Source: Methanobacteriota archaeon (GTDB lineage Archaea > JAADCQ01 > Methanopyri > Methanopyrales > Methanopyraceae). Taken from it: 32,000 nt of DNA. The DNA lies in contig JAMOPO010000052.1 in assembly GCA_027064425.1 (NCBI GenBank), positions 147,010 to 179,009 on the forward strand, read 5' to 3'. A program made the translations under genes and the position numbers. This document shows, piece after piece, positions 4,193-32,000 of this stretch; position 1 is the stretch's first letter; the number at the start of each line of letters is the position of its first letter. The notes below the pieces were generated by a model, which saw only the letters and a program-made list of their open reading frames with translations, was not told the DNA's origin and did not search any database.

Positions 4193-5147
4193 TGGGAGGG
4201 GACCCCCCATCGCATGGTAGTGCCGGGACCGGCTCGCCCTCCAAATACCTCAGCCCCAGCAGGCACAGCCCTCGCGCCTCGAGGTCCTCACCCGCGAAGA
4301 CGGCCACCTCGCCACCCCACAGCTCCGACACCCTCCGTTTTAAAAGTTCGTTTTTAACACCACCGCCCGAGAGCACCAGCAGGTCCGCGTCGAACCGGGA
4401 CGCGTTCCTCACGATCGTCTCCGCCACCAGCTCGGTCACCGTCCGCAGCGCGTCCTCCGGCTCCCCCTCGAACTCGGAGAGCACGGGCTTCAGCAGCCGC
4501 TCCTGCTCCGGCGGAACGACGCCTAGACTGCCCTTGACCGGGCCGAACACCGGCTGACCGTCCGCCTCCAACCCCTCCAGCCTCCGCCTCAGCCCTCCGT
4601 CCACCTCGCCCCGGGCCGCGGCCCGCCCGCCCTCGTCGTACTCCTCCCCCAGCAGCTCCCGGGCCGCCAGATCGATGGGAAAGGTGCCGGGGCACACGAC
4701 CGCCTTCCCGAAGTCCGGGTCGCCGCCCTCGATCGGCGTCACGACCGCCATCGCGCCCACGTCCACGTGCACGCAGTCCGGGTACTCCTCCGCCACGCAG
4801 TACGGCGCGCCCACGGCGTCACCGTCCGGGGCTCCCCACGGGTCCCCGTACACCGCCAGCGTGGGCACGCCCGTCCGCTCGTGGATCATCGGTCCCAGGA
4901 TCAGACCCAGCTCGTCCACGATCGTGCCCACGACGACCAGGTCCGGATCCACCTCCCGGACCCGGCGGACGACCCGGGGGGCGATCTCGCGGCGCAGCGC
5001 GCGCCGGCTCTCCTCGAGCGGGAACACGCACGAGATCTTGCCGAAGACCCCCTCCTCCCGGGCCACGATCTCCCACTCGCCCCGCTCGTTCATCAAGCAG
5101 TAGTCCGTGCCCGTGTTCCCCAGCTGAACCCCCAGCACCCGGACCAA
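4116..5147 (-). CDS. ASKHA-fold (actin/Hsp70/sugar-kinase) ATPase-like protein, possibly methanogenesis-marker-12 / AnmK-like
   Basis: Phosphate-1-like GVQLGNTGTDY, phosphate-2-like HVDVGAMAV, and adenosine motif LVLSGGGVKNELL. Start set at TTG 5147 (GTG 5138 is an alternative), because the first 38 codons of the track ORF are S/P-rich and cover the divergent promoter. The C-terminal tail overlaps tbp. Confidence 0.45.
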   Translation of the reverse strand: MVRVLGVQLGNTGTDYCLMNERGEWEIVAREEGVFGKISCVFPLEESRRALRREIAPRVVRRVREVDPDLVVVGTIVDELGLILGPMIHERTGVPTLAVYGDPWGAPDGDAVGAPYCVAEEYPDCVHVDVGAMAVVTPIEGGDPDFGKAVVCPGTFPIDLAARELLGEEYDEGGRAAARGEVDGGLRRRLEGLEADGQPVFGPVKGSLGVVPPEQERLLKPVLSEFEGEPEDALRTVTELVAETIVRNASRFDADLLVLSGGGVKNELLKRRVSELWGGEVAVFAGEDLEARGLCLLGLRYLEGEPVPALPCDGGSPPNGGRIEGNRARGRHPEHRGLGGSEG

Positions 5148-5172
5148 GCGCGCCGGCCCCCTTCCCGATGAC

Positions 5173-5182
5173 GATTTAAGAG
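5173..5182. promoter_or_regulatory. Bidirectional TATA-like box (GATTTAAGAG) between the ASKHA gene and rpl22
   Basis: This is the only AT-rich element in the 77-nt divergent spacer. It lies about 48 nt upstream of the rpl22 TTG and about 30 nt upstream of the ASKHA TTG on the other strand. Confidence 0.45.
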
Positions 5183-5224
5183 CAGTGAAACCCCGGCCGG
5201 GGTCCGGAAACGGGGGCGGATCGC

Positions 5225-5704
5225 TTGACGAGGACGAAGAAGTGGCATTACTCGATTCCACCCGAGGAGCTGGACGAGGACCGCACCGCCAAGGCCTTCA
5301 TCCGCGAGCTGAGGATCTCGCCCAAGCACGCCCGCGAGATCTGCCGGGCCATCCGCGGCAAGCCGCTCGACGAGGCCAAGGAGTTCCTGAAGCGCGTGAT
5401 CCGGAAGGAGGAGGCGGTGCCCTTCAGGAAGCACAAAAAGAAGGTTCCGCACCGCCGGCAGATCCGGCCGGGATGGGACGCCGGTAGGTTCCCGCAGAAG
5501 GCCGCGCGCGAGATCCTACGGGTCCTGGAGCACGCGGAGGCCAACGCCGAGCAGAAGGGCCTGGACACGGACCGCCTCTACATAAAGCACATAGCGGCGC
5601 ACAAGGGCCGCGTGATCCGCGGCTGGATCCCGCGAGCCTTCGGGCGAGCGACCCCGTTCAACACGCCCACCACGCACATCGAGGTGATCCTGGAGGAGCG
5701 CTAG
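5225..5704 (+). CDS. rpl22: 50S ribosomal protein L22 (uL22)
   Basis: [33 protein letters not shown] and the C-terminal [19 protein letters not shown] are typical of archaeal uL22. TTG start with a TATA-like box about 48 nt upstream. Confidence 0.9.
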
Positions 5705-12181: not shown

Positions 12182-12802
12182 CTACAGGACGTAGCCCCAC
12201 TTCACTGGGGTGACGTTGGCCAGCGAGACCGGCTTCAAATCCTCCGCCTTCAGCACTCCCGTGATCGAGTAGGCCACCGGGTACTCGTCGTCCAGCGACG
12301 CCACCTCGAACTCGTAGATCGATCCCCGCTTCTCGGCCCGGAACACCGCCAGGATCGCCGGCGCCCGCTCCAGCCTCCTCGCCAGCCGCTCCGGGTCGAC
12401 CCACGGGTTCCTGACCTGCACCTCCACGACGTACGCCTCCACCTGGTCGAGGAAAACCGCCGGCGCCCTGCCCAGCCCCTCCCGACGCAGCGTCCGGCTG
12501 ATCAGCTGCCCCAGCTCCCACTTGGACATGGGCCTCGGAAGCCGCACGATTATGCACGCCTCCACGGACGAGGGGGCCGTCTTAACGCCGCCCACCCTCA
12601 CGACGTACGGGACCCGGAGCAGCGCTCGATGGACGTCCTTCGGCTTGAGCCCCGGCCTCAGGTTGCAGATGACGACGTGGTAGCACGCCACCTGGGCCCC
12701 CTTGGACGAGATGGCCCACTGGTACGCCAGGATCCCCGCCACCGAGCCCGTCAGGGCGGCCGCCAAAACGACGATCGCCACCCTGCCCGCCCGCACGCTC
12801 AC
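12182..12802 (-). CDS. Hypothetical membrane-anchored protein (206 aa)
   Basis: GTG 12802 overlaps the upstream stop in a GTGA junction. One N-terminal TM helix (VAIVVLAAALTGSVAGILAY), then a soluble alpha/beta-looking region. The first 52 codons of the track ORF are G/R/A-rich shadow. No family recognised. Confidence 0.5.
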   Translation of the reverse strand: MSVRAGRVAIVVLAAALTGSVAGILAYQWAISSKGAQVACYHVVICNLRPGLKPKDVHRALLRVPYVVRVGGVKTAPSSVEACIIVRLPRPMSKWELGQLISRTLRREGLGRAPAVFLDQVEAYVVEVQVRNPWVDPERLARRLERAPAILAVFRAEKRGSIYEFEVASLDDEYPVAYSITGVLKAEDLKPVSLANVTPVKWGYVL

Positions 12803-13692
12803 AGCCCCCTGCTCACCGCCACGGTCATCAGTATCGACATCCCCGTCACCCAGGCGACGGAGTTCGGCGCCACCGGCTGCGCGAGGTAGCCCAGCACCCG
12901 GATCAGCGCCTGTACCAGCATCGGGAGCACCCCGACCACCGCGGCACCGACCAGCCACCGCTTACACCACCGCGGCCTCACCGCCCAGACCAGGTAGAGG
13001 CCCAATCCCGCCACCAGCGGCTTGCACATGAACCCGCCGTCAACGGCCCCGAGCACGGTGAGGAACCCGGCGACGGAGAGCATGATCGGCTCCAGCACCG
13101 TCCCGCGCCGCTCGTGCACGCTCAGCGGGTGGAGGAACCCCAGCGCGACGTAAGCGGCCACCGTGATCAGCGCGAGGGGGACGGCGAGAGGCCAGGGGAC
13201 GTACTTCGCCAGCACCGAGCCGTAATGGTACTTGGTGCGGACGTGGCGGAGCGCCAGGTCCAGAATCTTACCCACGCACGCCTTCAGCGCGTGGGTGTGC
13301 GTGAGGGACGTCGTCTCCCCGACCGAGCCTCCACCCGTGATGACGACGAGGGTGCCGGCCTTCATCCGGTACGGCGTGTTCAGCTGGATGACCAGCTGGC
13401 CGAGGTAGGGAAGCAGGGCGATGCCGACCACCGTCGCGCCCGCCGCGCGGTTCCCAACCTCGAGCACGGGCCGACCGTGGCCCGCCAGCAGCAGGCACAT
13501 CAGCCCAACGTGAGCGAGCAGGAGCGCGGGTTTAGCCTCCGTGGACCCCGTCAGTACCGGGTAGAAGAACTCGCGCACCAGGGCGTCGAGTGGCGTGTCC
13601 GTAGCGACCAGGAGCGCCGCGATTCCCAGCAGGAACGCTCCCGCGAGCCGGAGGTACCGGTCAACCCTCGACCGCCTCGAGGATGCGGTCAA
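12799..13692 (-). CDS. Hypothetical polytopic membrane protein (about 8 TM segments)
   Basis: 297 aa with repeated hydrophobic stretches (LLGIAALLVA, LLLAHVGLMCLLLAG, VVGIALLPYLGQLVI, PLAVPLALITVAAYVALGFL and others) and one soluble loop (GTLVVITGGGSVGETTSLTHTH). TTG start. No family recognised. Confidence 0.55.
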   Translation of the reverse strand: MTASSRRSRVDRYLRLAGAFLLGIAALLVATDTPLDALVREFFYPVLTGSTEAKPALLLAHVGLMCLLLAGHGRPVLEVGNRAAGATVVGIALLPYLGQLVIQLNTPYRMKAGTLVVITGGGSVGETTSLTHTHALKACVGKILDLALRHVRTKYHYGSVLAKYVPWPLAVPLALITVAAYVALGFLHPLSVHERRGTVLEPIMLSVAGFLTVLGAVDGGFMCKPLVAGLGLYLVWAVRPRWCKRWLVGAAVVGVLPMLVQALIRVLGYLAQPVAPNSVAWVTGMSILMTVAVSRGL

Positions 13693-14629
13693 CAGCCTCG
13701 GCCCCTCCGCGGACCAGCCACCTGCCGTCCGGGCGCTCGGCGACCTCCACCGGGTCGGTCTCCTCCACCTCGTCCAGGCTCAGCACGGGAACCCCCGACT
13801 CCCGGGCGATCCAGTGACTTAAGTGCCTCGGATGCAGCTCCCACACCTTGACCGCCCTGTTGCCCACCACGCACGCCTCAATGGTCACCCCGAACCCCCC
13901 GGAGAAGACGACCGTGTCGGCCACCATCATCGCGCCGGGCAGGTCCACGAATCCGCGCAGGCGGTCGAACCCCGGGGGCGCGCCGACGCGGAACGGAACG
14001 ACGAGCGGGTCGTGCTCGGACAGCCGCCTCAGGAGCCGCCTCGCCCCCTCCTCCGTCACGTCCCCTCCCAGGCAGACCAGCACACGATCCCGGCACTCCT
14101 CGGGCACCGGGCCCGGGATCTCACCCCTGAGGTGCCGCTCGGCGAGGTACTGGGCCAGCGGCGGCCCCGGGATGACCCTCGCCCGCGCGCCCGACCTCCG
14201 CTCCAGCTCCCTCGCGAACTCCCGGGAGAAGGGAACCAGTACCTCGGAGGCGAACCGGACCACCTCCACCGGGTTGTACACGTCCATTTCCACGTGCACG
14301 GACCTGACGCGCAGCGCCGCGGCCGCGAGCAGGGACTTCCGCGCGTCCCCGGTGTTGCCGGAGGATAGCACGACCGAGGGCCGATCCCGAGCCATCCGCG
14401 CCAGCACCCGGGTCAGGTCCACCGCGAAGCCGAGGTAGCCGCGCCACCCCTCCCGTCGCCTAGACCTGCCGAGCGTGCGCGCGTCCCGCCCCTCCCACCG
14501 TAGCACCTCGGAGCCGCGCCCGTGCCCGTACACCCGAACGTCCCAGCCCTCGCGCTCGAGCCGCTCGAGGACCGGGAGCAGGTTCTTCGCCGGCGAGGGT
14601 TCTACAAGGGCGAACGCCCGCTCACCCAC
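13661..14629 (-). CDS. GT-B / epimerase-like protein (DUF354- or MurG-like), function unknown
   Basis: GTG 14629 overlaps the hisB stop by 8 nt. The two-lobed Rossmann-like pattern (LLPVLERLEREGWDVRVYGHG...; DRVLVCLGG...; ADTVVFSGGFGVTIEACVVGNRAVKV) resembles the GT-B C-terminal nucleotide-sugar lobe. The W-rich N-terminal 168 codons of the track ORF are hisB shadow. Confidence 0.4.
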   Translation of the reverse strand: MGERAFALVEPSPAKNLLPVLERLEREGWDVRVYGHGRGSEVLRWEGRDARTLGRSRRREGWRGYLGFAVDLTRVLARMARDRPSVVLSSGNTGDARKSLLAAAALRVRSVHVEMDVYNPVEVVRFASEVLVPFSREFARELERRSGARARVIPGPPLAQYLAERHLRGEIPGPVPEECRDRVLVCLGGDVTEEGARRLLRRLSEHDPLVVPFRVGAPPGFDRLRGFVDLPGAMMVADTVVFSGGFGVTIEACVVGNRAVKVWELHPRHLSHWIARESGVPVLSLDEVEETDPVEVAERPDGRWLVRGGAEAVDRILEAVEG

Positions 14630-15221
14630 GTCCCAGCCTCCCCTTGGTGGACGGGACGCCCTCCTCGACCACCTCCACCGCCTCCCGCAGGGCCCGAGCC
14701 ACCGCCTTGAACATTGCCTCCACGGCGTGATGATCGTTGTCCCACGCCCGGAACTCCACGTGCATCGTGGTCCCGGAGTTCTCGCAGAAGCTGCGCCAGA
14801 AGTGCGGTACGTTCTCCAGCGAGAGCGGTGGATCGCCGATCCCGGGTCGGGAGGGATTGAACCCGCTGACCCGGAGGTAGGCCCGACCGGACAAGTCCAG
14901 GGCGCAGAGGACCAGGGAGCCATCCATGGGTACCATGGACCAGGCCATCCGGCGGATCCCGGACCGGTCGCCCAGAGCCTCGTCGAGCGCCTTGCCCAGG
15001 CAGATGCCCACGTCCTCCACCACGTGGTGATCGTCCACCTCCAGGTCGCCCACCACCTCGACCTCCAGGTCCAGTCCACCGTGAAGCGCCAGCTGTTCCA
15101 GCAGGTGGTCAAAGAACGGGAGCCCGGTGTCAACGTCGGCGGAGCCCTCCCCGTCGAGATCCATCCGGACGCTGACGTCCGTCTCCTCGGTCCTCCGCCG
15201 GACCTCTCCCACCCTGCTCAA
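14622..15221 (-). CDS. hisB: Imidazoleglycerol-phosphate dehydratase
   Basis: RRTEETDVSVRMDLDG, GLPFFDHLLEQLALHG, DDHHVVEDVGICLG, NDHHAVEAMFKAVARAL. These are the two conserved His-rich IGPD motifs. Confidence 0.93.
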   Translation of the reverse strand: MSRVGEVRRRTEETDVSVRMDLDGEGSADVDTGLPFFDHLLEQLALHGGLDLEVEVVGDLEVDDHHVVEDVGICLGKALDEALGDRSGIRRMAWSMVPMDGSLVLCALDLSGRAYLRVSGFNPSRPGIGDPPLSLENVPHFWRSFCENSGTTMHVEFRAWDNDHHAVEAMFKAVARALREAVEVVEEGVPSTKGRLGRG

Positions 15222-15286: not shown

Positions 15287-15685
15287 GTGGAGCGCGCGCT
15301 GGCGGCTGCGTGCGTGCTGCTGGGCGCGGTGCTGCTGTGGGCGTCCCACGGGGTGCCAGAGGATAAGGTTACGGCCGCGAGCCTTCGCGGGCTTCCGGAC
15401 GGAACGCTGGTGCTCGTGGACGGGAAGGTCTCACGGCTTGTCACGCTCCGGCGCGGGTGCTTGGTGGAGGTGCGGGTTAGGGACGGCACGGTGCCGGTGT
15501 ACCTCACGGAGTCCGCCGGTCGGGAGCGTGTGCCGGCCCCGGGCGAAAGGTTTCGAGCCCTGGGCCGAGTGGAATCCTACGAGGGTAGGAAGGAGGTGAG
15601 GGTTGATGCGTCGGGGCTACGTGCTGCCGGTGGCGGTGGGCGTTCTGGTGGCCCTGATCCTGCCGTACGTGGTGTACGGTGGTAA
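15287..15685 (+). CDS. Membrane-anchored OB-fold-like protein
   Basis: GTG start. N-terminal hydrophobic helix (LAAACVLLGAVLLWA), then an OB-like beta pattern (GTLVLVDGKVSRLVT..GCLVEVRVRDGTVPVYL...FRALGRVESYEGRKEVRV). The G/R-rich tail overlaps the next gene. Confidence 0.45.
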   Translation: MERALAAACVLLGAVLLWASHGVPEDKVTAASLRGLPDGTLVLVDGKVSRLVTLRRGCLVEVRVRDGTVPVYLTESAGRERVPAPGERFRALGRVESYEGRKEVRVDASGLRAAGGGGRSGGPDPAVRGVRW

Positions 15686-16409
15686 GCCGGAGGGTCCGGG
15701 CTACCCGACGGAGCTTTACGGGTTCAGGGTCAGCCTGGCGAGTCCCGATCTGGCCGTCACGGACATCGTACCCAGGAAGACGCTGCTGATGGAGCACGAG
15801 CTGCGGGTCGACTCGCCGGGCTGGTCGGTGCACTTCGTGCCGGACTGGCCTCCCGTCGTTCTGGTTCACGCGGTGAGAATGAGCGACGAAGAACTGGCGG
15901 TTAGGAACCTGTGGGCGGTCGTCCTCCAGGAGGGTGCCGGGCGGATCTTCATGCCGGACGAGTTCGTGGAGGGCGGCGTGCCGGGGCTGATCACGGGGAT
16001 CGCCGGCCAGGCGTGGGCGTGGAAGCACCTGAAGTGGGCCCGGAAGTACGGGGTGATCCACGGGCTGCGGAGGTACGCGCGGGAGGTGGGCCCGAGCCGG
16101 GTAAGTCGAGAGATCCGTCGGGAGTACGGGAAGGAGCCGTGGCGGGCCCTGCTGGACTTCTGTGAGATGATGCGGTGCAGCGACGTGGGGCGCTTCCTGC
16201 GCTCCAAGCGCCTGTCCTTCCGGGACTTCTTAACCAGCCGGGATCCGGAGTTAGTCGCCCAGGTCCTGACGGTGCTGGACCTGGGCAGACTGGACCCGGA
16301 GGTGGCTAAGAAGAGGATCCGGTACGTGTTGGACGCTCGGGCGTACCCGCTGCCAAAAAGTGAGGAGTGGGCGTTGAGGGAGGCGGCGCGGAGGCTGCTT
16401 CACGGGTGA
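15606..16409 (+). CDS. Hypothetical membrane-anchored protein (267 aa)
   Basis: ATG preceded by a strong Shine-Dalgarno-like GGAGGTGA. N-terminal TM helix (VLPVAVGVLVALILPYVV). No family recognised. Confidence 0.5.
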   Translation: MRRGYVLPVAVGVLVALILPYVVYGGKPEGPGYPTELYGFRVSLASPDLAVTDIVPRKTLLMEHELRVDSPGWSVHFVPDWPPVVLVHAVRMSDEELAVRNLWAVVLQEGAGRIFMPDEFVEGGVPGLITGIAGQAWAWKHLKWARKYGVIHGLRRYAREVGPSRVSREIRREYGKEPWRALLDFCEMMRCSDVGRFLRSKRLSFRDFLTSRDPELVAQVLTVLDLGRLDPEVAKKRIRYVLDARAYPLPKSEEWALREAARRLLHG

Positions 16410-19553: not shown

Positions 19554-20279
19554 GTGCACTACGTCGGGCTGGGCGGCTTCGGATGCCGGTTCTCCTCCCA
19601 CGCTTCCAACGCCGGCTTCCGAGTGCTCGCCTGCGTCGGCTCCAAGGGTGACCTCCTGCGGGTCTCGGAGGGCAAGACCGTCGAGGTAGCACCGGACATC
19701 GGCTACAACCGCGACTGGCGTCGAGCCTCCGAGGAGCTCGCGGATCACGAGAAGGCCATGAACACGATCCGCAAGTGCCTCGAGCAGCACCTGGACGGCC
19801 CCACGCTCATGGCGTTCGGACTGGGCGGAGCAGTGGGGTTCGCGCTCGCCCGACCCTTCCTCGAGGACCCTCCCGTCCCCTTCGTCCTCCTCGTCACGAT
19901 CCCGGGCGAGTCCGAGGATCCCCAGGTCCGACGCAACGCGCGCGAGCAGGTGGACGTGGTGCTGAAGGTCTCCTCCAAGCTCCCGATCCTCTGGGTGGAC
20001 AACGATATTGGTGGAGGCTACGACCGGGTCAACCGGATGCTCGAGAAGACGCTCTCCGAGTTCCGGGAGTTCCTGAACGTCCCGGTCGAGGAGCTCCCGA
20101 ACATGGCCGGGAACTACGCGGTCTCCCCCTCCCTACCCGGCGAGCGCGTGACCGAGGAGATCGTCAAGACGAACCCCAGCGAGATCCGTCGGCTCGTGAG
20201 CGATCGGGAGCCCGAGGAGCGCGTGATCAAGGAGGAGCGGAAGGGGCCGGACCCGGACTCACTGAGGGAGCTGTTCTAG
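19554..20279 (+). CDS. FtsZ/tubulin-fold-like protein, GTPase domain only, degenerate nucleotide-binding motifs
   Basis: GTG start 16 nt after the PhoU-like stop, with a G-rich SD. Loop order and spacing follow the FtsZ N-domain: GLGGFG (T1 position), IGYNRDW (T3 position), GLGGAVGFA (T4 signature position), IPGESED (T5 position), RRNAREQVDVVL, and ILWVDND (T6 position). No C-terminal domain or T7 loop. Confidence 0.55.
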   Translation: MHYVGLGGFGCRFSSHASNAGFRVLACVGSKGDLLRVSEGKTVEVAPDIGYNRDWRRASEELADHEKAMNTIRKCLEQHLDGPTLMAFGLGGAVGFALARPFLEDPPVPFVLLVTIPGESEDPQVRRNAREQVDVVLKVSSKLPILWVDNDIGGGYDRVNRMLEKTLSEFREFLNVPVEELPNMAGNYAVSPSLPGERVTEEIVKTNPSEIRRLVSDREPEERVIKEERKGPDPDSLRELF

Positions 20280-20557: not shown

Positions 20558-21721
20558 ATGGAGGTTCCCTCGGGCTTCCTGCTTGGCGGCGTGAAGCGGG
20601 ACGTAGGCGTGGGCCTGCTGTTCTCCGAGACCAGGTGCTCGGTCGCGGGCGTATTCACGCGGAACACCCTCCGCGCCGCTCCCGTCGAATACTCCGAGGA
20701 GGTGTGCTCCCGCGGGCGCGCCCGTGGAGTGATCGTCAACAGTGGCCACGCGAACGCTCTCACCGGCGAGGAGGGGATGCAGGACGTCCTCCGGATGGCC
20801 GACGGCGCCTCACGGCTGTTCGGGGTGCCCGACGACGAGGTTCTAGTGTGCTCGACCGGAGTCATCGGCGAGCGGCCGCCCGTGGACAGGATCCTGAAGC
20901 TGGCCGAGGAGGTCTGGGAGTCCCGGATGGGGTCCGATCCGGAGCACGTCCGCGCCTTCAACGAGGCCATCATGACGACGGACACTCGGGAGAAGGTCTC
21001 GTCGTACTCCGGCGGCGACTGGTGCCTCCTCGGGGTGGCGAAGGGCGCCGGCATGATCCACCCGCGGATGTCGACCATGCTGGCCTTCCTGATCACGGAC
21101 GTCCGGGCCGCGTCCCACGATCTCCAGCCCGTGCTGCGAGACGCCGTCGAGGACACGTTCAACATGATCAGCGTGGACGCCGACGAGAGCACCAACGACA
21201 CCGTCCTCCTGATGGCCAACGGGGCGTCCGGGCTCGAGGTGGGCAGGGACGTGCCGGAGTCTGAGTTCGAGAAGGCCGTGAGGAAGGTGTGCGAGGACTT
21301 GGCCCGGGAGATCGCTCGGGACGGTGAGGGATCGACCAAGCTCCTGGAGGTGGAGGTGCGCGGGGCTCGGTCCCGGAAGGAGGCCAGAAGGGCTGCCAGG
21401 GCGGTGGTCTCCTCCAACCTGGTGAAGGCCGCCCTCTTCGGCGAGGACCCGAACTGGGGGAGGGTGGGCGCGGCGATCGGCGCCGCGCGGGTCGATGTCG
21501 ACCCGAGCTCCCTCAAGATCATCTTCGAAAGCTCGGAGGGAAGGGTGGTAACCTACGACGGCGGTCCCGTCAAGTTCGATGAGGAGGAGGCGGCGCGGAT
21601 TTTATCCGACCGAGAGGTCCGGATCGTGGTGGACCTGGGAGTGGGTGACGAGTCCGCCCGCGCCTGGGGGTGCGACCTGACCTACGATTACGTCAAGATA
21701 AATGCCGAGTACCGCACGTGA
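20558..21721 (+). CDS. argJ: Bifunctional ornithine acetyltransferase / N-acetylglutamate synthase ArgJ
   Basis: [24 protein letters not shown], and [23 protein letters not shown] (the autoprocessing site region). C-terminal [16 protein letters not shown]. Confidence 0.92.
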
Positions 21722-22983
21722 AGATCGGGCGCGCACAGGGGAAGCCCGCCGTGCCGGAGGAGATCATCGAGCTCAAGGGTCACATCATCGACTCCCTGAT
21801 CCTGTCCAAGGTGCTAGACACGATCATGGAGATGGGCGGGGACTTCGAGATCCTAGAGTTCGAGGTCGGAAAGCGCAAGACGGACCCCAGCTACGCCAAG
21901 ATCCTTGTGAAGGCGGACGACCCCGACCACCTCAGCGAGATCATCACGGAGCTGAGAAAGTACGGCGCGGTGCCCGTCGAGTCGGACGAGGTCCGGGTGG
22001 AACCGGCCCCCGCCGACGGTGTCTGCCCGCGCGGCTTCTACACCACCACCAACCACCCGACCTTCGTGAAGTTCGACGGCGAGTGGATTGAGGTGGAAAA
22101 CATCGAGATGGACTGCGCGATCGTGATCTACCCGGAGGAGAAGCGGGCCGTGGCCAAGCCCATCCGGGAGGTAAAGAAGGGCGAGCTGGTGGTGGTCGGG
22201 GACCGCGGGGTCAAGGTCAAGCCGCCGGAGCGACCGCGCGGTAGGACCGGCATCTTCGGGTTCATGGAGAGCGACGTGTCGCCCGAGAAGCCCACGCCCA
22301 CCCTGATCCGTCAGATCGCCGAGGAGCTCGAGGAGCACCGGAAGAACGGCAAAATCGTCGTGGTGGTGGGGCCGGCCGTCATCCACGCCGGGGCCCGGGA
22401 CCACCTCGCGTGGATGATCCGGAACGGATACGTGGACGTTCTCTTCGCGGGCAACGCGGTGGCCGTGCACGACGTGGAGGCGAGCCTGTTCGGGACCTCG
22501 CTGGGCGTGGACCTGGAGACGGGGGAGCCCGTGAAGGGCGGGCACAGCCACCACCTGTACGCGATCAACGAGATCCGCCGCGTGGGCGGCCTCAAGCAGG
22601 CGGTGGAGAAGGGGATTCTGAAGGACGGGATCATGTACGAGTGCATCGTGAACGACGTGCCCTACGTCCTGGCGGGCTCGATCCGGGACGACGGACCCAT
22701 CCCGGACGTGATCACCGACGTCATGGAGGCGCAGAAGGAGATGCGGCGCCACCTGCGCGGAGCCACGCTGGTCCTCATGCTCGCCACGATGCTGCACTCG
22801 ATCGCCACCGGGAACCTGCTGCCGTCCTGGGTGAAGACCATCTGCGTGGACATCAACCCGGCCGTGGTCACGAAGCTCATGGATCGAGGCACGGCGCAGG
22901 CGCTGGGGATAGTGTCGGACGTGGGGGTGTTCCTGCCGGAGCTGGTGAAGGAGCTCAAGAAGATTCGGAACGACGGCGAGTAG
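21718..22983 (+). CDS. LOR/SDH-domain protein (TIGR00300-like), possible ornithine cyclodeaminase-type enzyme
   Basis: GTG 21718 overlaps the argJ stop (GTGA). The N-terminal regulatory-like domain [46 protein letters not shown] matches the LOR/SDH conserved region as I recall it. The C-terminal part is Rossmann-like ([15 protein letters not shown]). Confidence 0.6.
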
Positions 22984-23271: not shown

Positions 23272-24240
23272 TTGGCGGAAAAAGGTAGCGGGCCCAAGAA
23301 GAAGGGCGGAAAGGAGGACCGCGAGCGCGAGCGGATCACGGTGAAGTCCAGGCACTACGAGATGCCATTCTCACGCGGGGTCTTGGCCCGATCACTCACG
23401 GCCATCGGCGTGGAACCGCACAAAGCCTACGAGATCGCCCTGAAGATCAAGCGCGAGCTGCAGAAGGAGGGAGTCCGCGAGATCACCACGGACGAGCTGG
23501 CCGAGATCATCCGGGAGAAGCTCGAGGAGATCGACGAGTCGCTGGCCGAGCGGTACGAGCTCTGGCGCCGGATCAAGAAGCGCGAGGAGCCGATCATCGT
23601 GCTGATCGGCGGTGCTTCCGGCGTCGGGACCTCCACGATCGCCGCCGAGGTCGGCCACCGACTCGGCATCACGAACGTGATCGGCACGGACGCCATCCGC
23701 GAGGTCATGCGCCGCGTGCTGGCCGAGGAGCTGTACCCGACCCTCTACGAGTCCTCGTACACCGCCTGGAAGCGGCTACGGTACAAGCCCGCCGAGGACC
23801 CCGTGATCACCGGGTTCCTGGACCACTCGGAGCCCGTCGTCGTGGGCATTGAAGGCGTTGTCAACCGCTCGATCAACGAGGGCATCCACGTGATCATCGA
23901 GGGCGTGCACATCGTCCCACGGCTCCTCAAGAAGGAGATCCTCAACTACCCGAACGTGTTCGCCTTCATGCTGGCCGTGGAGGACGAGGAGGCGCACAAG
24001 TGGCGATTCTACGCGAGGTCCCGTGACACCAAGCTGTCCCGCCCGGCCGAGCGGTACCTGAAGTACTTCGAGGAGATCCGGAAGATCCACGACTTCCTGG
24101 TCGAGGACGCGGAGGAGCACGACATCCCGGTGATCAACAACGAGCATATCGACGAGACGGTCGACCAGATCGTGAGCTACATATCATCCAAGCTGCTGAA
24201 GGGTGAGAAGGAGCTGTCGAAGAGCACATCCTGGTGGTGA
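23272..24240 (+). CDS. pgk2: 2-phosphoglycerate kinase (ATP-cone + P-loop kinase)
   Basis: ATP-cone-like N-terminus (PFSRGVLARSLTAIGVEPHKAYEIALKIKRELQ), P-loop IVLIGGASGVGTSTIA, and ITNVIGTDAIREVMR...LYESSYTAW. TTG start. Confidence 0.78.
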   Translation: MAEKGSGPKKKGGKEDRERERITVKSRHYEMPFSRGVLARSLTAIGVEPHKAYEIALKIKRELQKEGVREITTDELAEIIREKLEEIDESLAERYELWRRIKKREEPIIVLIGGASGVGTSTIAAEVGHRLGITNVIGTDAIREVMRRVLAEELYPTLYESSYTAWKRLRYKPAEDPVITGFLDHSEPVVVGIEGVVNRSINEGIHVIIEGVHIVPRLLKKEILNYPNVFAFMLAVEDEEAHKWRFYARSRDTKLSRPAERYLKYFEEIRKIHDFLVEDAEEHDIPVINNEHIDETVDQIVSYISSKLLKGEKELSKSTSWW

Positions 24241-24669: not shown

Positions 24670-24888
24670 GTGAAGCTGAGCGAGCGGCCCCCGAGGGAGC
24701 TCTCAGAGCTGCTTCAAGATCACGGTCTTACGGTGCGGGACGACGGTCGGACCGTGCTCATCCGTGGGTCCAAGGACGATCTGCTGGAGGCCCTGCTGAA
24801 CGTCCCACCGAAGCTGTCCATGTCTTCCCGAAAAGTCATCAAAGAGCTGTGGAGGGCGCTGGGAGCGGACCGACCGCGGCTCCGCTAG
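24670..24888 (+). CDS. Hypothetical small protein (72 aa)
   Basis: GTG start 2 nt after the CBS stop. Coding-like sequence (LSELLQDHGLTVRDDGRTVLIRGSKDDLLEAL). No family recognised. Confidence 0.4.
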   Translation: MKLSERPPRELSELLQDHGLTVRDDGRTVLIRGSKDDLLEALLNVPPKLSMSSRKVIKELWRALGADRPRLR

Positions 24889-25772
24889 AACACCGAGTAG
24901 CTACCCTTCACCACCGAATTGTCCACCAGGAAGACCCGCTGCCGGCCCCCCATGTTGGACATCCAGAGCCAGAGCTCAACGCTGCCGCTCTTGGCGTGTT
25001 CCGGCAGGACCATCGCGGGCACCGTTCGACCCTCGAAGTTCACCGTCCGGCTCCCGATCTTCTCCTCGCCCGGGCCCAGCAGGGTGACGCTCACCCTACC
25101 CAGCTGTACCGTAAGCTGCTCTAGCACCAGACAGCCTCTGGCCCCCGTCTCCTTCAGCGCCCGCTCGATCTGCCGCTTGACCTCCACGTGCTTCCCGTCG
25201 CTAACGTTGCACAGGACCCGCCCGATCACCGCGTTGTATCGGACTTTAACGTCCGGACCGTCCATGACCCGGCGGCCGAGCTCCCGCCTAACCGCCTCCT
25301 TCACGCGCTTCGCGTCGGGCTTGCCGTCGTACGAGGCCTGGAACATGAACACGGATCCCTTGATTACCACGCTCCGCTGCGCCATCACCTTGTCCTTCAG
25401 CGCCTTCTCCACGTCCTTCCTGGCCTGATTGGGGTCCATCGTGATCGGCACCAGGGCGTCAACGATCACGACCTCCTGGCCGGCCAGCTTCGTTTTCTGC
25501 GCGGAGACTCTCTCCACGCCCTCGACGCCCTCCACCACCTTCTTCAGGTCCCGCTCCGACACCCCGGGCTTAGGTACGGTCAGGACCCGGACGATCGACA
25601 CCTGATAGTCGCGCACGATCCTCGCCTTCACGACGCCCTCCGCCGCGGCCACCTGGGTCGCCTGCCCGGTGAGGGTGAACGTGGGGATGGCGGACAGAAC
25701 CATCATCGCGGCCAGGAACAGGATGCCGCCCACCACGATCGTGCGTCGGTGTCGGCGAATCCAGTCGAACAC
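24885..25772 (-). CDS. Hypothetical membrane-anchored (probably extracytoplasmic) protein, 295 aa
   Basis: N-terminal TM helix (IVVGGILFLAAMMVLSAI), followed by several alpha/beta-looking modules each with a charged helix (DLKKVVEGVEG; ARKDVEKALKDKV; AKRVKEAVRRELG; EVKRQIERALKETG). Starts 3 nt after the CYTH stop. Confidence 0.55.
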   Translation of the reverse strand: MFDWIRRHRRTIVVGGILFLAAMMVLSAIPTFTLTGQATQVAAAEGVVKARIVRDYQVSIVRVLTVPKPGVSERDLKKVVEGVEGVERVSAQKTKLAGQEVVIVDALVPITMDPNQARKDVEKALKDKVMAQRSVVIKGSVFMFQASYDGKPDAKRVKEAVRRELGRRVMDGPDVKVRYNAVIGRVLCNVSDGKHVEVKRQIERALKETGARGCLVLEQLTVQLGRVSVTLLGPGEEKIGSRTVNFEGRTVPAMVLPEHAKSGSVELWLWMSNMGGRQRVFLVDNSVVKGSYSVF

Positions 25773-27875: not shown

Positions 27876-28178
27876 GTGATGGAACGGGTGAGCTGCCTGA
27901 CCTCCCGGGTTCGAGTCATCCTGCGGCTCCGGGTACCGGAGGAGGTGATCCGATCCCTCGACCCGGACTCGGACCCCTGGTGCTCCGTGCGCGACCGAAC
28001 GATCCGGATTCGAGGGGACGGGTTCGGGCCCGTGAAGCACGCCACCGACGACGTGCTCCGGTGCGTGAAGGCTGGCCTGTCGGCGGTGAGGGTGGCGGAG
28101 GATGCAGCCGCTGACGAGGAGGAACAAGGACGAGCACCCGGCCGTGACCGATCCGGACACGACGATCATCCTGGGTGA
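27876..28178 (+). CDS. Hypothetical small protein, weak Pcc1(KEOPS)-like pattern
   Basis: RVRVILRLRVPEEVIRSLDPDSD...RTIRIRGDG...ATDDVLRCVKAGLSAVRV loosely follows the Pcc1 beta-beta-beta-alpha pattern (A.D..LR). The assignment is tentative. The tail overlaps the next gene by 77 nt. Confidence 0.3.
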   Translation: MMERVSCLTSRVRVILRLRVPEEVIRSLDPDSDPWCSVRDRTIRIRGDGFGPVKHATDDVLRCVKAGLSAVRVAEDAAADEEEQGRAPGRDRSGHDDHPG

Positions 28179-28809
28179 CGTTCAGGCGACCCCGGACTGC
28201 GTGATCGGCGAGCGCGTCCGGCTGGGTCCCGACGTGGAGATGCGCGGGGCGTTGATCTCCGGGGAGTCCGTGGTCTACAACTCGGAGCTCGAGGGGTGCG
28301 CGGTGGGCAAGAGGACGACCGTCACGGGCCGGGTTTCGGAGGGCGTCACGATCCACCACGGCTCCGTCCTCGGGCAGCTGAAGGTCAGTGGGGACATCGA
28401 ACCCCCCGTCATCGGGTCCGGAGCCTTCGTGGGACCGGGGGTCTCTCTGCTTCCCGGCACCGAGGTGGGCGAGGAGGCCGTGCTCCTCCCGAACAGCGTG
28501 GTGACCGAGCGCGTCCCCCGCCGCGGCGTGGTGGGCGGGAACCCCGCGATGCCTCGCGGCGTGGTCGTGGACGTGGAGCGGGTGGAGGTCGAGTTCGACG
28601 GATCGGAGTTCGAGGTCGAGGGACGCCGGGGGCGCGCCTTCGATCTCAGGCTAACTGACGGCGGGCTGGAGGTCGAGGAGGACCGCCCCCACGAGTTCGG
28701 GGTGATCGCCGAGAAGCGGCCGAGGATCGTCCGGCTGGGACACGCGATCGAGCTGCCGCGGCGGCCCTTCACCTTCCCCCTCTACGTGCTCCAGCTGAAG
28801 ACCAAGTAG
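28102..28809 (+). CDS. Left-handed beta-helix (hexapeptide-repeat) transferase-like protein with unknown C-terminal domain
   Basis: Hexapeptide repeats IGERVRLGPDVEMRGALISGESVV...IGSGAFVGPGVSLLPGTEVGEEAVLLPNSVVTERVPRRGVVGGNPA. The C-terminal 80 aa are unassigned. Confidence 0.6.
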   Translation: MQPLTRRNKDEHPAVTDPDTTIILGDVQATPDCVIGERVRLGPDVEMRGALISGESVVYNSELEGCAVGKRTTVTGRVSEGVTIHHGSVLGQLKVSGDIEPPVIGSGAFVGPGVSLLPGTEVGEEAVLLPNSVVTERVPRRGVVGGNPAMPRGVVVDVERVEVEFDGSEFEVEGRRGRAFDLRLTDGGLEVEEDRPHEFGVIAEKRPRIVRLGHAIELPRRPFTFPLYVLQLKTK

Positions 28810-28820
28810 GGGGACCGCCG

Positions 28821-29426
28821 GTGCCCGTCCGCGACTCGGTCCTCATTGACACGGAGGTGGAGGAGGGCCTGGTCATTGGGAGCGTCCTGGAGGGTTGCGA
28901 GGTTCGGAGGGCGGCGGTCGTAGGAACCGTGGCCCACGGGGAGCGGTTCGAGGGGACGGTGGTGGTCGGCGGACGGCCCACCGACGGTGAGGTGACGGTT
29001 GTTCCCGTCCGCGCCGGTGAGTGGGGGGCCGCGTCCGGCGAGGACGAGGTGAGCGTCCCGGACTCGGACGGTGAGGACGTTCTCGCGATCGTGGCGGACG
29101 TGAGCGCGATGGGGCTGCTCCGCGATCTCCTGAAGATCGAGCCGCGACGGGTGGGGCACCACGCTCTCTTCACGTTCTCGGGCTCGCTGCCGGCCCGGCT
29201 CAGGAGGCGCCTGGTGGGGAACCTGGACCTGTTCCGGGAGTGCTGCCCGTGCGCCTACCTGCGAGTTAGCGGCACCGTCATCGCTTTCCGGGGCGGCAAG
29301 CAGGTCTTCGATGAGCCCGGGGAGGTCGAGTATCGGGACGTGCTGGTCGTGCGGGACGGCAGGCCGGTGCTGTCGGCCTGGAAGGCGGCGACGAAGAGCG
29401 TGATCTCCGAGCTGGGGGCCGGGTGA
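28821..29426 (+). CDS. Beta-helix-like N-terminal domain protein with Cys-containing unknown C-terminal domain
   Basis: GTG start 11 nt after the previous stop. The N-terminus SVLIDTEVEEGLVIGSVLEGCEVRRAAVVGTVAHGERFEGTVVVGG looks like short hexapeptide turns. The C-terminal domain (LFRECCPCAYLRVSG...) is unassigned. Its stop overlaps the next start (GTGA). Confidence 0.45.
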   Translation: MPVRDSVLIDTEVEEGLVIGSVLEGCEVRRAAVVGTVAHGERFEGTVVVGGRPTDGEVTVVPVRAGEWGAASGEDEVSVPDSDGEDVLAIVADVSAMGLLRDLLKIEPRRVGHHALFTFSGSLPARLRRRLVGNLDLFRECCPCAYLRVSGTVIAFRGGKQVFDEPGEVEYRDVLVVRDGRPVLSAWKAATKSVISELGAG

Positions 29427-30337
29427 CTCGCGTGGCCGGTCTCCGCGAGCTCCCGGACCTCTTCTGTCGGGCCGTCGTGGTGGAGGTCCTGTCGGGCCCG
29501 AAGCCGGGGCTCGTGGATCCCGTCTCACCGAGCCCGCACCGGGACATGGGGCCCGGCGAGTTCTTCTCCTGTCTTCCCGAGCTGAACCGGTGCCTGCGCG
29601 AGGCACTGGAGCTGGGGCTAGACCGCGAGCCGGTGGAAGAGGTCGTGGATCTGATCCCCGCCTGGAACGTGGACGTGCTGACGGCGTCCTCCGGCCCGAA
29701 CTCCGTGCGCGGGGTGCTGTTCCTGGGCGCCGTGTACTGCTACTCGGCCGGGTGGGAGGGGGACGTCTTCCCGTTCTCTCGGATCCGCGAGGTCGGGAGG
29801 CTCTGCGCGGAGAAGCTGTGGGACAGGACGGAGACGAAGTGCGGTCGAAGGCGAGTCCGAGAGGGATTAGCGGGAATCTTCGGCGAGGCGGCGTCCGGGC
29901 TTATGACCGCGAGGACGGTGTCGTTGTCCACCCTGGTCTCGGTGCTGCGCCGGGGCGGAACGCTTGAGGAGGCCGTCGTGCAGTCGGTCCTGGCCTGCAT
30001 GTCCGTTCTGGAGGACGCCGGGCTCCCCCCGCGGACGCGGGAGTGGGTGAGGCGAAGGTCCCGCGAGGTGTTGGAGATGGGAGGGGTGTTGACCCGGCGG
30101 GGTCGGGAGGAGCTCTGGTCCTTTGTGGAGGAGTGCGCACGGAGGGAGGTCAGCCCGGGCGCGTCGGGGGACGTGACGATCGTTGGGCTCGTGCTGCTCT
30201 TCCTCCGGTGGGGGAGGGACCTTTCCTCCCCGTATCTTGATCCTCCGGGACGGTGGGGTCGGGGAGCAGGTGGGGAGGACCGTTCGGGTCCTGGTGCGCG
30301 GGGACGGGACGCGGGTCGTGGCCTCTCGAGGGGATAG
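29423..30337 (+). CDS. CitG/MdcB-like triphosphoribosyl-dephospho-CoA synthase family protein
   Basis: GPKPGLVDPVSPSPHRDMGPGEFF matches the CitG N-terminal KPGLVD....H.DM motif. GPNSVRGVLFLG, GIFGEAASG and the C-terminal [17 protein letters not shown] follow the family order. The last 41 codons are G/R-rich and overlap the next ORF. Confidence 0.65.
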   Translation: MTRVAGLRELPDLFCRAVVVEVLSGPKPGLVDPVSPSPHRDMGPGEFFSCLPELNRCLREALELGLDREPVEEVVDLIPAWNVDVLTASSGPNSVRGVLFLGAVYCYSAGWEGDVFPFSRIREVGRLCAEKLWDRTETKCGRRRVREGLAGIFGEAASGLMTARTVSLSTLVSVLRRGGTLEEAVVQSVLACMSVLEDAGLPPRTREWVRRRSREVLEMGGVLTRRGREELWSFVEECARREVSPGASGDVTIVGLVLLFLRWGRDLSSPYLDPPGRWGRGAGGEDRSGPGARGRDAGRGLSRG

Positions 30338-30854
30338 GAAGTTTTTTAAGCGAAGCGAGGTCGGGGTCGAGCGAGAGTTAACGCCGTGGGAGGCCTACCG
30401 GGAGATTTGTACCCGGCTGGAGCTTAACTCGCTGGAACCTCCCGAGGACGTCGGGCACCCGGTCGACCCCGAGACGGGGTACCGGGTGCTGGAGCTCCTG
30501 GACCTGTTATGGCGGTCCGGGATCGAGGGGCTGGGCGTAACCGGCACGGTGGGCTGCGCGGCACCCCTCCACGACCTTACGGTGGGGAATCCGGTCGGGT
30601 GGACGAGCCTCCGGGTGGCGAACCCCGGCTCCGACCTCGACTTAATAATCAGGGAGAAGGGAACTCTACGGGAGCTCCTGAACCTGGGCTTTAGAGTCGT
30701 CAGGCGACGGGGTGACGGGGCGCTCCTGTCCCCGGAGCGGGTCACGGGTTTCCGTACTCCTCTACTCGACGTGAGGTGGGGGTGCGACGTTGGCGGACGA
30801 CCTGGACAGCCTCCTGCCGAAGACCTCAGAGAGCACCAGCCTGAGCACCCTTAA
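30183..30854 (+). CDS. Nucleotidyltransferase-fold protein, MdcG/CitX-like (candidate phosphoribosyl-dephospho-CoA transferase analogue)
   Basis: Pol-beta-type NTase signature [11 protein letters not shown]....GSDLDLII preceded by the helix [12 protein letters not shown]. The start is uncertain: 30183 on the track, a TTG near 30236 or a GTG near 30269 are plausible. The 3' tail overlaps pan by 65 nt. Confidence 0.45.
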
Positions 30855-32000
30855 GAGCCTGAAGAACGCGCTCGAGGAGCTGGCTGGTAAGTCGGACTCG
30901 AACATCGAGGGACTGGTGGAGGCGCTGGACGACCTGATCACGCTGATGGAGAAGACCGGGGTGAAGGACCTCCGCGACCTCATCGAGGAGTTCAAGGACC
31001 TCAAGCAGGAGAAGAAGCGCCTGGAGGAGCTCCTGCAGGAGTACTTCAAGCGGCTTGAGGAGCTGGAGCGGAAGCTGAAGGCGCAGGAGGAGAAGCTCAG
31101 GATCGAGGCGCGGCGCCGGAAGACGCTGGAGAAGGAGCTGGAGATGGAGCGGGACGAGAAGGCCGAGCTGCGGGAGGAGCTCCGGCGGAAGGAGGTGATG
31201 ATCGAGAAGCTCCGGAACGACCTGCAGCGGCTGAAGAAGCCGCCGCTGATCGTGGGCACGGTGGAGGAGGTGCTCGACGACGGCCGCGTCATCGTCAAGA
31301 GCTCGACCGGGCCGAAGTTCGTCTCGAACGTCAGCCCAACCGTGGACAAGGACAAGATCGAGCCGGGCGCGAACGTGGCGCTGAACCAGCAGAGCATGGC
31401 CGTCGTCGACGTGCTGCCCTCGGAGAAGGACCCGCGGGTCACGGCCATGGAGGTGGAGGAGGATCCGGACGTCACGTACGACGACATCGGCGGCCTCGAC
31501 AAGCAGATCCAAGAGATCCGAGAGGTCGTGGAGAAGCCGCTCAAGGAGCCCGAGCTGTTCGAGAAGGTCGGCGTCGAGCCGCCGAAGGGCGTGCTCCTGT
31601 ACGGACCGCCCGGCACGGGTAAGACCCTGCTCGCCCGCGCGGTCGCTCACCACGCGGACGCGACGTTCATCCGGCTCGCCGCGCCCGAGCTCGTCCAGAA
31701 GTTCATCGGCGAGGGTGCCCGGCTGGTGCGCGAGCTGTTCGAGCTGGCTCGGGAGAAGGCTCCGAGCATCATCTTCATCGACGAGATCGACGCCATCGGC
31801 GCCCGACGCATGCGGGACGCCACGAGCGGCGACCGCGAGGTGCAGCGGACGCTGACGCAGCTCCTGGCCGAGATGGACGGCTTCGACCCGCTCGACGACA
31901 TCAAGGTCATCGCCGCGACCAACCGGAAGGACATCCTGGACCCGGCACTGCTCCGGCCCGGCCGGTTCGACCGGCACATCAAGATCCCGCTGCCGGACGA
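30790..32000 (+). CDS. pan: Proteasome-activating nucleotidase (PAN, AAA+ ATPase), 3' end beyond window
   Basis: TTG 30790, about 8-10 nt after GAGGTGG. Long coiled coil, then the OB domain [27 protein letters not shown], Walker A GPPGTGKT, Walker [10 protein letters not shown], and the second region of homology [20 protein letters not shown]. No stop before the window end. Confidence 0.92.

Follow-up and report, generated by a model that had tools for sequence, protein, structure and literature searches.

A CitG-like gene and an overlapping Methanopyri-only gene as a possible enzyme pair, with the tetrahydromethanopterin side chain as candidate acceptor

CitG and MdcB use the 2'-hydroxyl of dephospho-CoA to displace adenine from ATP, giving an alpha-(1''-2')-linked 5''-triphosphoribosyl product, and CitX and MdcG join this product to a serine as a phosphodiester with the release of pyrophosphate. 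The corresponding genes, mdcG with mdcB and citX with citG, overlap by 4-25 nt in bacteria, where the transferase always comes first and the synthase second (examples are L002 3203-4745, L016 184-1152 and L021 5481-6933). Fusions of CitX to CitG (PF03802 with PF01874) are very common, and one fusion of MdcG to MdcB was found (PF10620 with PF01874; 529 aa, P0041). The present analysis concerns a CitG-like gene and the gene overlapping its end, here called ORF2, in a 32,000-nt stretch of DNA (the window) from a Methanobacteriota archaeon (contig JAMOPO010000052.1, positions 147,010 to 179,009 of the forward strand). The proteins of the window are of Methanopyrus lineage, and the top homologues of the CitG-like protein and of ORF2 are both named Methanopyrus.

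CitG-family genes also occur in methylotrophs that use tetrahydromethanopterin (H4MPT). Methylosinus has an mch-orf5-orf7-fae island, and in Methylomonas DH-1 a 'triphosphoribosyl-dephospho-CoA synthase' gene stands in a row with those for Mch and an alpha-L-glutamate ligase, which fits the statement in the initial annotation of this DNA that a CitG-like orf7 stands among the H4MPT-linked genes of methylotrophs. Methanopyrus itself uses H4MPT (Mch enzyme MK0625), and a CitG homologue has already been annotated in this genus and in other methanogens (Methanobacterium formicicum). The annotation of the homologue, and the link between CitG and H4MPT from methylotroph genetics, are therefore already known; no paper linking CitG to methanopterin in archaea was found in the literature searched.

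At the Methanopyri locus, the two genes are co-oriented, overlap each other and lie within an operon-like cluster that Methanopyri have conserved. ORF2 could be the partner of the CitG-like enzyme, with the H4MPT side chain as the favoured acceptor, a proposal that we make tentatively and that falls somewhat short of being probable. What is new is a corrected two-gene model with a sharp switch in selection, the recognition of ORF2 as a constrained protein found only in Methanopyri, and an MdcG-type motif which, weak but above its null, points to a testable proposal for the last steps of H4MPT synthesis.

The CitG-like gene, ORF2 and their junction

The window, with a G+C content of 62-72%, was compared with four other Methanopyri assemblies: an M. 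kandleri-type contig (L001), L004, L005 and L006. Three of the related loci are Methanopyri/Methanobacteriota metagenome-assembled genomes (MAGs). The features under study are the following.

29423-30337, + strand: CitG-like open reading frame (ORF), 304 aa, Pfam PF01874
30227-30244, + strand: conserved 18-nt block, cross-lineage identity 97%
30237-30854, + strand: ORF2, 205 aa from TTG 30237 (maximal ORF 30183-30854)
30543-30647, + strand: most conserved core of ORF2, with invariant columns and a candidate metal-binding Asp-x-Asp at 30633-30641

The CitG-like protein matched PF01874 with 109.9 bits (cut-off 27; E 2.4e-31) along positions 3-283 of the 284 in the profile and carries KPGLVDPVSPSPHRDM and the C-terminal SPGASGD, in agreement with the CitG-like synthase placed here by the initial annotation. 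Twenty-five invariant columns are common to seven Methanopyri and three bacterial CitG/MdcB sequences, and the family motifs PKPGLVD...H.DM, N..RG..F and the C-terminal SPG.S.D are kept. Judged by these matches, the protein is a member of the CitG family and a probable ATP-dependent triphosphoribosyl transferase, and by analogy with the family it very likely performs CitG-type chemistry. By score it is not an equivalog of CitG or MdcB, because it lies far under the NCBIfam cut-offs, with 79.6 bits for TIGR03125 (CitG; cut-off 272), 88.9 for TIGR03132 (MdcB; 282), 73.1 for NF002315 (PRK01237; 280) and 54.9 for NF007503 (477). With the same Pfam model, canonical MdcB scored 264 bits compared with 110 for the CitG-like protein, whose identity to bacterial members is 25-31%.

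One CitG-family cluster was found per Methanopyri lineage, and no second one was found in the searches. Besides Methanopyri, the CitG profile search gave only bacterial CitG/MdcB among the 120 matches listed, three of its top unnamed matches being canonical bacterial operons, and a contig scan for archaeal CitG homologues, made with over-specific patterns, returned only three Methanopyri MAGs. A profile search of solved structures found none of the CitG family. Methylotroph orf7 was not found in a search of plasmids and megaplasmids; second CitG-like loci in Caballeronia and Azospirillum were considered as orf7 candidates and rejected, as they are ordinary mdc and cit operons.

As had been described, 155 nt are common to the two maximal ORFs, the downstream one is read in the +1 frame, and G and R abound in the CitG tail; the likely true overlap is shorter, at 101 nt. 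In the last 40 codons of the CitG domain, amino-acid identity is highest in the CitG frame (0.59, compared with 0.39 in the ORF2 or +1 frame and 0.41 in the third frame), and the variable sites number 18, 19 and 30 at CitG codon positions 1, 2 and 3. In the 96 nt past the SPY[L/R]DP motif, identity is 0.39 in the CitG frame, 0.72 in the ORF2 frame and 0.37 in the third frame, and the corresponding counts of variable sites are 26, 15 and 11, the peak being ORF2 position 3. Selection shifts from the CitG frame (SPY[L/R]DP) to the +1 frame (PRI[L/V]IL) inside the 18-nt block, TCCCCGTATC[T/G]TGATCCT, which is 97% identical across the five lineages compared with 60-71% in its flanks (other loci: L001 1848-1865, L004 6805-6822, L005 6799-6816 and L006 6766-6783). 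The single variable site of the block is the first base of a TTG/GTG start codon, and the extreme conservation of the block may be explained by dual coding together with this start codon.

TTG 30237 is the only potential ORF2 start that is conserved in all five lineages, as TTG or GTG. Where gene callers placed GTG starts further downstream, the window has GTT or GTC and L001 has CTT, and tblastn alignments with the 30237-start model begin at residue 1 in all four related loci. From these comparisons, the start of ORF2 is most likely TTG 30237 and not TTG 30183, which gives the overlap of 101 nt.

The constrained part of the CitG-like gene ends at about 30244, and the remaining 31 codons (30245-30337, G/R-rich) are unconstrained read-on. 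In L001 (L001 1788-1910) a TAG shortens the CitG frame by 23 codons relative to the Methanopyrus sp. proteins of 307 aa; the length of the tail is therefore free to vary. The distal G/R-rich tail is dispensable and without selection at the protein level. At the other end of ORF2, the conserved sequence stops near 30786 (...VRWGC), and the last 22 codons form a lineage-specific tail that overlaps the start of the next gene, encoding the proteasome-activating nucleotidase (PAN), by 65 nt. In M. kandleri-type DNA the orthologue stops with ...PRGC, immediately ahead of PAN, and the ORF2 tail reflects the same stop-codon drift as the CitG tail. The overlap, with its sharp switch in selection, is a tidy case of such drift in a high-GC genome, and a warning for gene callers, as ORF2 starts differ between assemblies.

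ORF2 is a real gene under purifying selection. Between lineages, its dN/dS (ratio of non-synonymous to synonymous substitution rates) is 0.15-0.37 (0.18 at an unsaturated dS of 0.59) compared with 0.21-0.49 for the CitG-like gene, in comparisons where dS ranges up to saturation; cross-lineage protein identity is 50-84% for ORF2 and 49-81% for the CitG-like protein. ORF2 is thus at least as constrained as its neighbour. Both the GC content and the variable sites track the ORF2 codon phase, the variable sites peaking at third positions.

Since the frame of selection changes at the block that holds the sole start codon conserved in five lineages, we conclude that the locus consists of two separate genes overlapping by 101 nt and not of a frameshifted fusion. 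The initial annotation had suggested that a +1 frame change could yield a CitG-nucleotidyltransferase fusion. A fusion made by programmed +1 ribosomal frameshifting, or by an RNA-level event, at the 18-nt block would resemble the CitX-CitG and MdcG-MdcB fusions of bacteria, which show that both activities can be joined naturally; ORF2 is always in the +1 frame (5/5 assemblies), the frame of selection changes within an ultraconserved block, and no Shine-Dalgarno-like sequence is conserved 5' of 30237. It is nevertheless very unlikely, as no slippery motif is kept (at the central codon, three lineages have CTT and two have CGT), a start codon is retained at the variable base in 5/5 lineages, the ORF2 frame of L006 is interrupted by a stop nine codons 5' of the block, and the domain order is reversed in the bacterial fusions. 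To our knowledge, +1 programmed frameshifting is not established in archaea. A frameshift due to sequencing error was rejected, as the five assemblies agree. Long spurious ORFs are common on both strands of the window and ORF2 has no family matches, which would suit an open frame that arose by chance in a genome of 67% G+C, or a frameshift introduced in assembly or sequencing, but such a reading is hardly credible: it is effectively refuted by the dN/dS values, and the protein identity matching that of the CitG-like protein, the coding-type periodicity of GC and variability in the ORF2 frame and the same layout in five independent assemblies all speak against it.

Relationship of ORF2 to MdcG and other nucleotidyltransferases

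A word-indexed search gave only six homologues of ORF2, all Methanopyrus-type, and an exhaustive HMMER profile search of 1.84 billion representative proteins gave three clusters, all from Methanopyri. Pfam, NCBIfam, PADLOC and PHROGs gave no match above threshold for ORF2, even when every homologue was scanned permissively. A permissive scan of 24,736 Pfam models with seven homologues gave four weak matches, among them MdcG (PF10620) with E 0.22 in one of the seven; ORF2 of the window had no MdcG match at E <= 1, and MdcG_N was matched by none of the seven. The profile search of the second ORF against MdcG, CitX and nucleotidyltransferase (NTase) models, which the initial annotation had proposed as a check, therefore returned nothing significant. 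Concatenated RecA chains returned by a PDB profile search with ORF2 were discarded as an artefact (i-E of about 200 per stretch).

The invariant core of ORF2 reads G-x14-GSDLDLI-x24-D, and none of the candidate catalytic Asp residues varies; another invariant Asp is encoded at 30714-30716. Among the 64,000 six-frame residues of the window, ORF2 alone matches a loose NTase-like pattern that was defined post hoc, with the motif already seen. Compared with the Pol-beta motif hG[GS]-x9-13-Dh[DE]h, ORF2 has VGN-x14-DLDLI or GT-x26-DLDLI, with an invariant Asp 25 residues on, so that the Gly-Ser is replaced and the spacing is at or past the usual range.

Profiles were built from 14 MdcG sequences of bacterial mdc operons and from 13 CitX sequences. 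The hhalign comparison of the ORF2 profile with the MdcG profile paired the GSDLDLI region of ORF2 with TGl.Yv...SDlDLL of MdcG over 21 columns (score 30.0, P 6.7e-4, probability 27%). None of 120 column shuffles reached this score (maximum 21.3, median 12.9), nor did the reversed profile (13.5). A low-confidence extension paired the Asp at 30714-30716 with the invariant Asp of MdcG RLDGE, and a Gly/Trp/Thr stretch of ORF2 with MdcG GS..W..T. The Gly, the S-D-x-D and the later Asp of MdcG have counterparts in ORF2, each of them invariant there; the W-R-E and the Glu of D-x-E have none. CitX gave no Pfam match and an hhalign probability of 0.1% with ORF2, and CitX homology was rejected; MdcG against CitX was likewise blank (0.4%).

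An AlphaFold model of ORF2, made from a shallow alignment, had a pLDDT (predicted local confidence) of 55.8; local values were 69-87 for the helix and strands on either side and under 40 for the invariant linker of 30 residues. In a Foldseek search of the PDB, its top matches included the NTases ANT(2'')-Ia (E 6.7e-3, probability 0.99), Cid1, DNA polymerase beta, GLD-2, LnuA and TUT7, with TM-scores of 0.32-0.36 and nothing at E <= 1e-3. In a second model, of the M. kandleri-type orthologue (pLDDT 58.6), the order of helices and strands was the same and the linker folded as a hairpin; Foldseek gave no NTase match for it (best E 0.94). An NTase fold is plausible from the first model, and the profile comparison lends weak support to a resemblance to MdcG that is confined to the catalytic strand, with membership of the MdcG family not established. 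Of the label 'MdcG/CitX-like' given to ORF2 in the initial annotation, the local match to the MdcG profile and the NTase matches of one model survive; a family-level match is missing and CitX drops out.

Neighbouring genes and the search for an acceptor

The CitG-like gene and ORF2 stand third and fourth among five + strand genes arranged head to tail, in an order that is identical in L001. The other three are the following.

28102-28809, + strand: hexapeptide-repeat protein, 235 aa, first gene of the cluster; Pfam Hexapep E 2.3e-14
28821-29426, + strand: orf201, 201 aa, found only in Methanopyri among the loci compared
30790-32000, + strand: PAN, an AAA ATPase; Pfam AAA E 5e-46, Prot_ATP_ID_OB_C E 1.9e-18

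The hexapeptide protein resembles the left-handed beta-helix transferases and has a C-terminal extension of about 85 aa; its NCBIfam matches are all to acetyltransferases, weak and far under the cut-offs. Its gene is conserved and collinear in L001, L004, L005 and L006. A 100-aa ORF, orf100 (27876-28178), overlaps the annotated start of this gene by 77 nt and is conserved in the other Methanopyri loci (49-80%), and it may be a real overlapping small gene, or the hexapeptide gene may start further downstream.

The stop codon of orf201 overlaps the start of the CitG-like gene (GTGA), and its orthologues in the four loci are 47-81% identical. The N-terminus of the protein is hexapeptide-like; a variable acidic linker, in which a Ser-Gly is conserved, leads to a C-terminal domain bearing the invariant motif NLD[LV][FL]RECCPCA. 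This RECCPCA-type motif suggests metal or redox chemistry. No Pfam or NCBIfam family matched orf201, and its sole phmmer match in the PDB was a lipoate-protein ligase (E 0.17). PAN closes the cluster, in the same position in L001; its start is TTG 30790, with GAGGTG just before, and the gene runs past the end of the window. It is probably unrelated in function.

Canonical partners were sought by tblastn with 14 proteins (MdcA/C/D/E/G/H and CitC/D/E/F/X) against the window and by Pfam scans of its roughly 34 longest ORFs. The best tblastn match had E 0.16, and no citrate-lyase or malonate-decarboxylase subunit or acyl carrier protein (ACP; PF06857) was found in the 32 kb, as the initial annotation had stated. 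Nor were citCDEF, mdcACDE or an ACP gene found in a 10-kb stretch of the M. kandleri-type locus. Comparison by hhalign of the hexapeptide protein, orf201, orf100 and ORF2 with an alignment of the CitD/MdcC ACPs gave nothing significant (for orf201, P 0.09 and probability 0.6%). In the same Pfam and NCBIfam scans, no recognised H4MPT gene was found in the window.

These scans identified genes for a helicase, TBP, TFB, MetRS, ribosomal protein S3 and ArgJ, followed by a nickel-pincer-type ornithine cyclodeaminase, 2-phosphoglycerate kinase, CBS and CYTH proteins, a ClC channel, a cupin and PAN; no Rfam family or tRNA was found in the window. At 20558-22983, ArgJ (E 3.6e-138) is followed by TIGR00300, the 'nickel-pincer nucleotide-dependent ornithine cyclodeaminase' (656 bits, cut-off 411), the maximal ORFs overlapping by 52 nt, and the two form an arginine/ornithine/proline pair. 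The 2-phosphoglycerate kinase at 23272-24240, with an N-terminal ATP-cone (NF003259, 454 bits), is 88-96% identical across the Methanopyri loci, far above its neighbouring genes; it takes part in making cyclic 2,3-diphosphoglycerate, as is typical of Methanopyrus and Methanothermus. A divergent CofE-like protein at 2611-3612 (F420_ligase 73 bits; TIGR01916 54 bits, cut-off 181) and an ASKHA/AnmK-like protein at 4116-5261 on the - strand (46 bits, cut-off 387) probably represent cofactor or sugar-kinase families in forms specific to Methanopyri. Several ORFs of 240-490 aa had no Pfam or NCBIfam match, at 12182-15133(-), 15603-16409(+), 19554-20279(+) and 24885-25772(-). The one at 24885-25772 (295 aa) is 45-78% conserved in other Methanopyri loci and is therefore a real gene; the others may be orphans or spurious high-GC ORFs.

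Possible chemistry, alternatives and comparison with known systems

In the side chain of H4MPT, an alpha-ribofuranosyl O-glycosidic bond joins ribose to ribitol, and a diester of the ribose 5-phosphate leads to 2-hydroxyglutarate; methylotrophs make dephospho-H4MPT, which is without the phosphate and the hydroxyglutarate. We know of no assignment in methanogens for the enzymes that add alpha-ribosyl-5-phosphate and hydroxyglutarate to methanopterin. In the proposed mechanism, the CitG-like enzyme would let a sugar hydroxyl displace adenine from ATP to give an alpha-linked 5-triphosphoribosyl adduct, and ORF2 would spend the triphosphate, forming a phosphodiester between the phosphoribosyl group and a hydroxyl and releasing pyrophosphate, like MdcG/CitX. 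The acceptor would not be the ACP of citrate lyase or malonate decarboxylase, and the H4MPT side chain is the favoured candidate because it contains exactly these two bonds; the place of the CitG-like orf7 beside mch in methylotrophs and the use of H4MPT by Methanopyrus fit this choice. The 101-nt overlap implies that the CitG-like gene and ORF2 share a transcript. We infer the catalysis by ORF2, its coupling to the CitG-like enzyme and the acceptor alike. The evidence for ORF2 as the partner is weak, and this role is possible and not yet probable, while H4MPT as the pathway is the more doubtful choice of the two. In its most specific form, ORF2 would be an MdcG-like NTase of the last H4MPT steps, linking a 5-triphospho-alpha-ribosyl intermediate on the precursor ribitol to (S)-2-hydroxyglutarate with release of pyrophosphate, its analogues in other methanogens having diverged past sequence recognition; this version is quite unlikely.

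Several observations weigh against the pairing and the proposed acceptor. The Methanopyri order, synthase before transferase-like gene, is the reverse of that in bacteria, and the nearest non-Methanopyri relatives of the CitG-like protein that were found are ordinary bacterial CitG/MdcB in canonical operons. ORF2 lacks any family match and any relative beyond Methanopyri at the sequence level, although an enzyme on which every methanogen relied for H4MPT should occur widely, barring displacement of its analogues or their divergence past recognition. The MdcG match reaches a probability of only 27% over 21 columns, both structural models are poor, and the second gives no NTase match. Linkage of the CitG-like gene to its neighbour in related genomes, also put forward at the outset as a check, was found; it is uninformative, because the entire 8-kb region from the 2-phosphoglycerate kinase gene through ORF2 is collinear in all the Methanopyri loci, even at about 50% protein identity. 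Conserved adjacency was therefore rejected as a sign of functional linkage.

The same points give room to a second explanation, in which the CitG-like enzyme acts without ORF2, in H4MPT synthesis or another ribosylation, and ORF2 is an unrelated orphan whose GSDLDL is coincidental or serves another nucleotidyl transfer. Whole-region synteny in a compact genome deprives the adjacency of meaning, ORF2 has no family-level match and no NTase match in its second model, and it is absent at the sequence level from other archaea while CitG homologues are annotated in other methanogens; the methylotroph H4MPT islands list no NTase-type gene beside orf7. Under the H4MPT proposal, that absence would fit the dephospho-H4MPT of these bacteria. 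Against an orphan ORF2 stand the local MdcG match above all shuffles, the NTases that dominate the top Foldseek matches of the first model, a 101-nt overlap that implies co-transcription and probably coupled expression, and the fact that in bacteria the gene overlapping citG or mdcB is the cognate transferase. We regard this explanation as a genuine, if doubtful, possibility. A classical system, in which 2'-(5''-phosphoribosyl)-3'-dephospho-CoA is attached to a serine of an unrecognised archaeal carrier, possibly nearby (orf201) or elsewhere, is unlikely. It would use the one CitG-family chemistry that experiments have established, orf201 translationally abuts the CitG-like gene, hhalign set the Ser-Gly of orf201 against the prosthetic-group serine of MdcC/CitD, and the hexapeptide-repeat protein encoded alongside resembles acyl-CoA transferases in type. 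However, the alignment of orf201 with the ACPs is not significant, the window holds no ACP, lyase or decarboxylase subunit, and the CitG-like protein reaches about one third of the equivalog cut-offs and 110 bits with the Pfam model that gives canonical MdcB 264.

Returning to the proposed pair, a CitG-family enzyme is chemically apt, as inversion at C1' of ATP gives an alpha-O-riboside, and a partner using the resulting triphosphate would explain the phosphodiester of H4MPT; if this is true, the H4MPT step would be a small-molecule re-use of the prosthetic-group chemistry of CitG/MdcG. H4MPT biosynthesis is a target for methane mitigation, and the Methanopyri pair offers two small thermostable proteins for direct testing. 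Even if the idea of H4MPT is wrong, an archaeal CitG without a known carrier protein implies a new acceptor or a new substrate.

Among the described systems, CitG/MdcB (EC 2.4.2.52, PF01874) is the closest to the CitG-like protein, with a full-length profile match, shared motifs and a similar length once the unconstrained tail is set aside. The Methanopyri protein differs in its low identity and sub-equivalog scores, in the lack of a citrate-lyase or malonate-decarboxylase context, in the lineage-specific C-terminal SPY[L/R]DP extension and read-on tail, and in having its partner gene downstream, where bacteria have it upstream. The methylotroph orf7, compared by gene context alone, is likewise a CitG-family gene in an H4MPT organism without citrate-lyase or malonate-decarboxylase context; it adjoins mch and an ATP-grasp ligase gene, whereas the Methanopyri gene adjoins no recognised H4MPT gene, and the islands described have no ORF2-like neighbour beside orf7.

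For ORF2, MdcG (PF10620 with PF20866) shares a length of about 200 aa, a conserved catalytic core in the C-terminal half, an SDLDL strand after G-x14-16 with an invariant Asp 25-30 residues on, and a gene that overlaps one of the CitG family. Unlike MdcG, ORF2 has no recognisable W..RE or MdcG_N, contains an extra invariant GVxGTVGCxAPL segment, has no MdcC acceptor nearby and stands in the reversed gene order. CitX (PF03802) has in common with ORF2 only the proposed role and the tight linkage or fusion to CitG in bacteria, in the face of no sequence or profile similarity. The minimal NTases of the Pol-beta type (ANT(2'')-Ia, LnuA) have the order predicted for ORF2, namely a helix, a Gly-ended strand, a linker, the Asp-x-Asp strand, a helix and two strands with a third Asp; ORF2 has a longer linker between the Gly and Asp-x-Asp, with an invariant sequence peculiar to the ORF2 family. 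Lastly, PhnI and PhnM of the C-P lyase pathway offer a chemical parallel, as a nucleophile takes the place of adenine in ATP, forming an alpha-ribosyl 5-triphosphate from which a second enzyme removes pyrophosphate, but they belong to unrelated families, act on a phosphonate substrate and end in a hydrolysis, where the Methanopyri pair would carry out a transfer.

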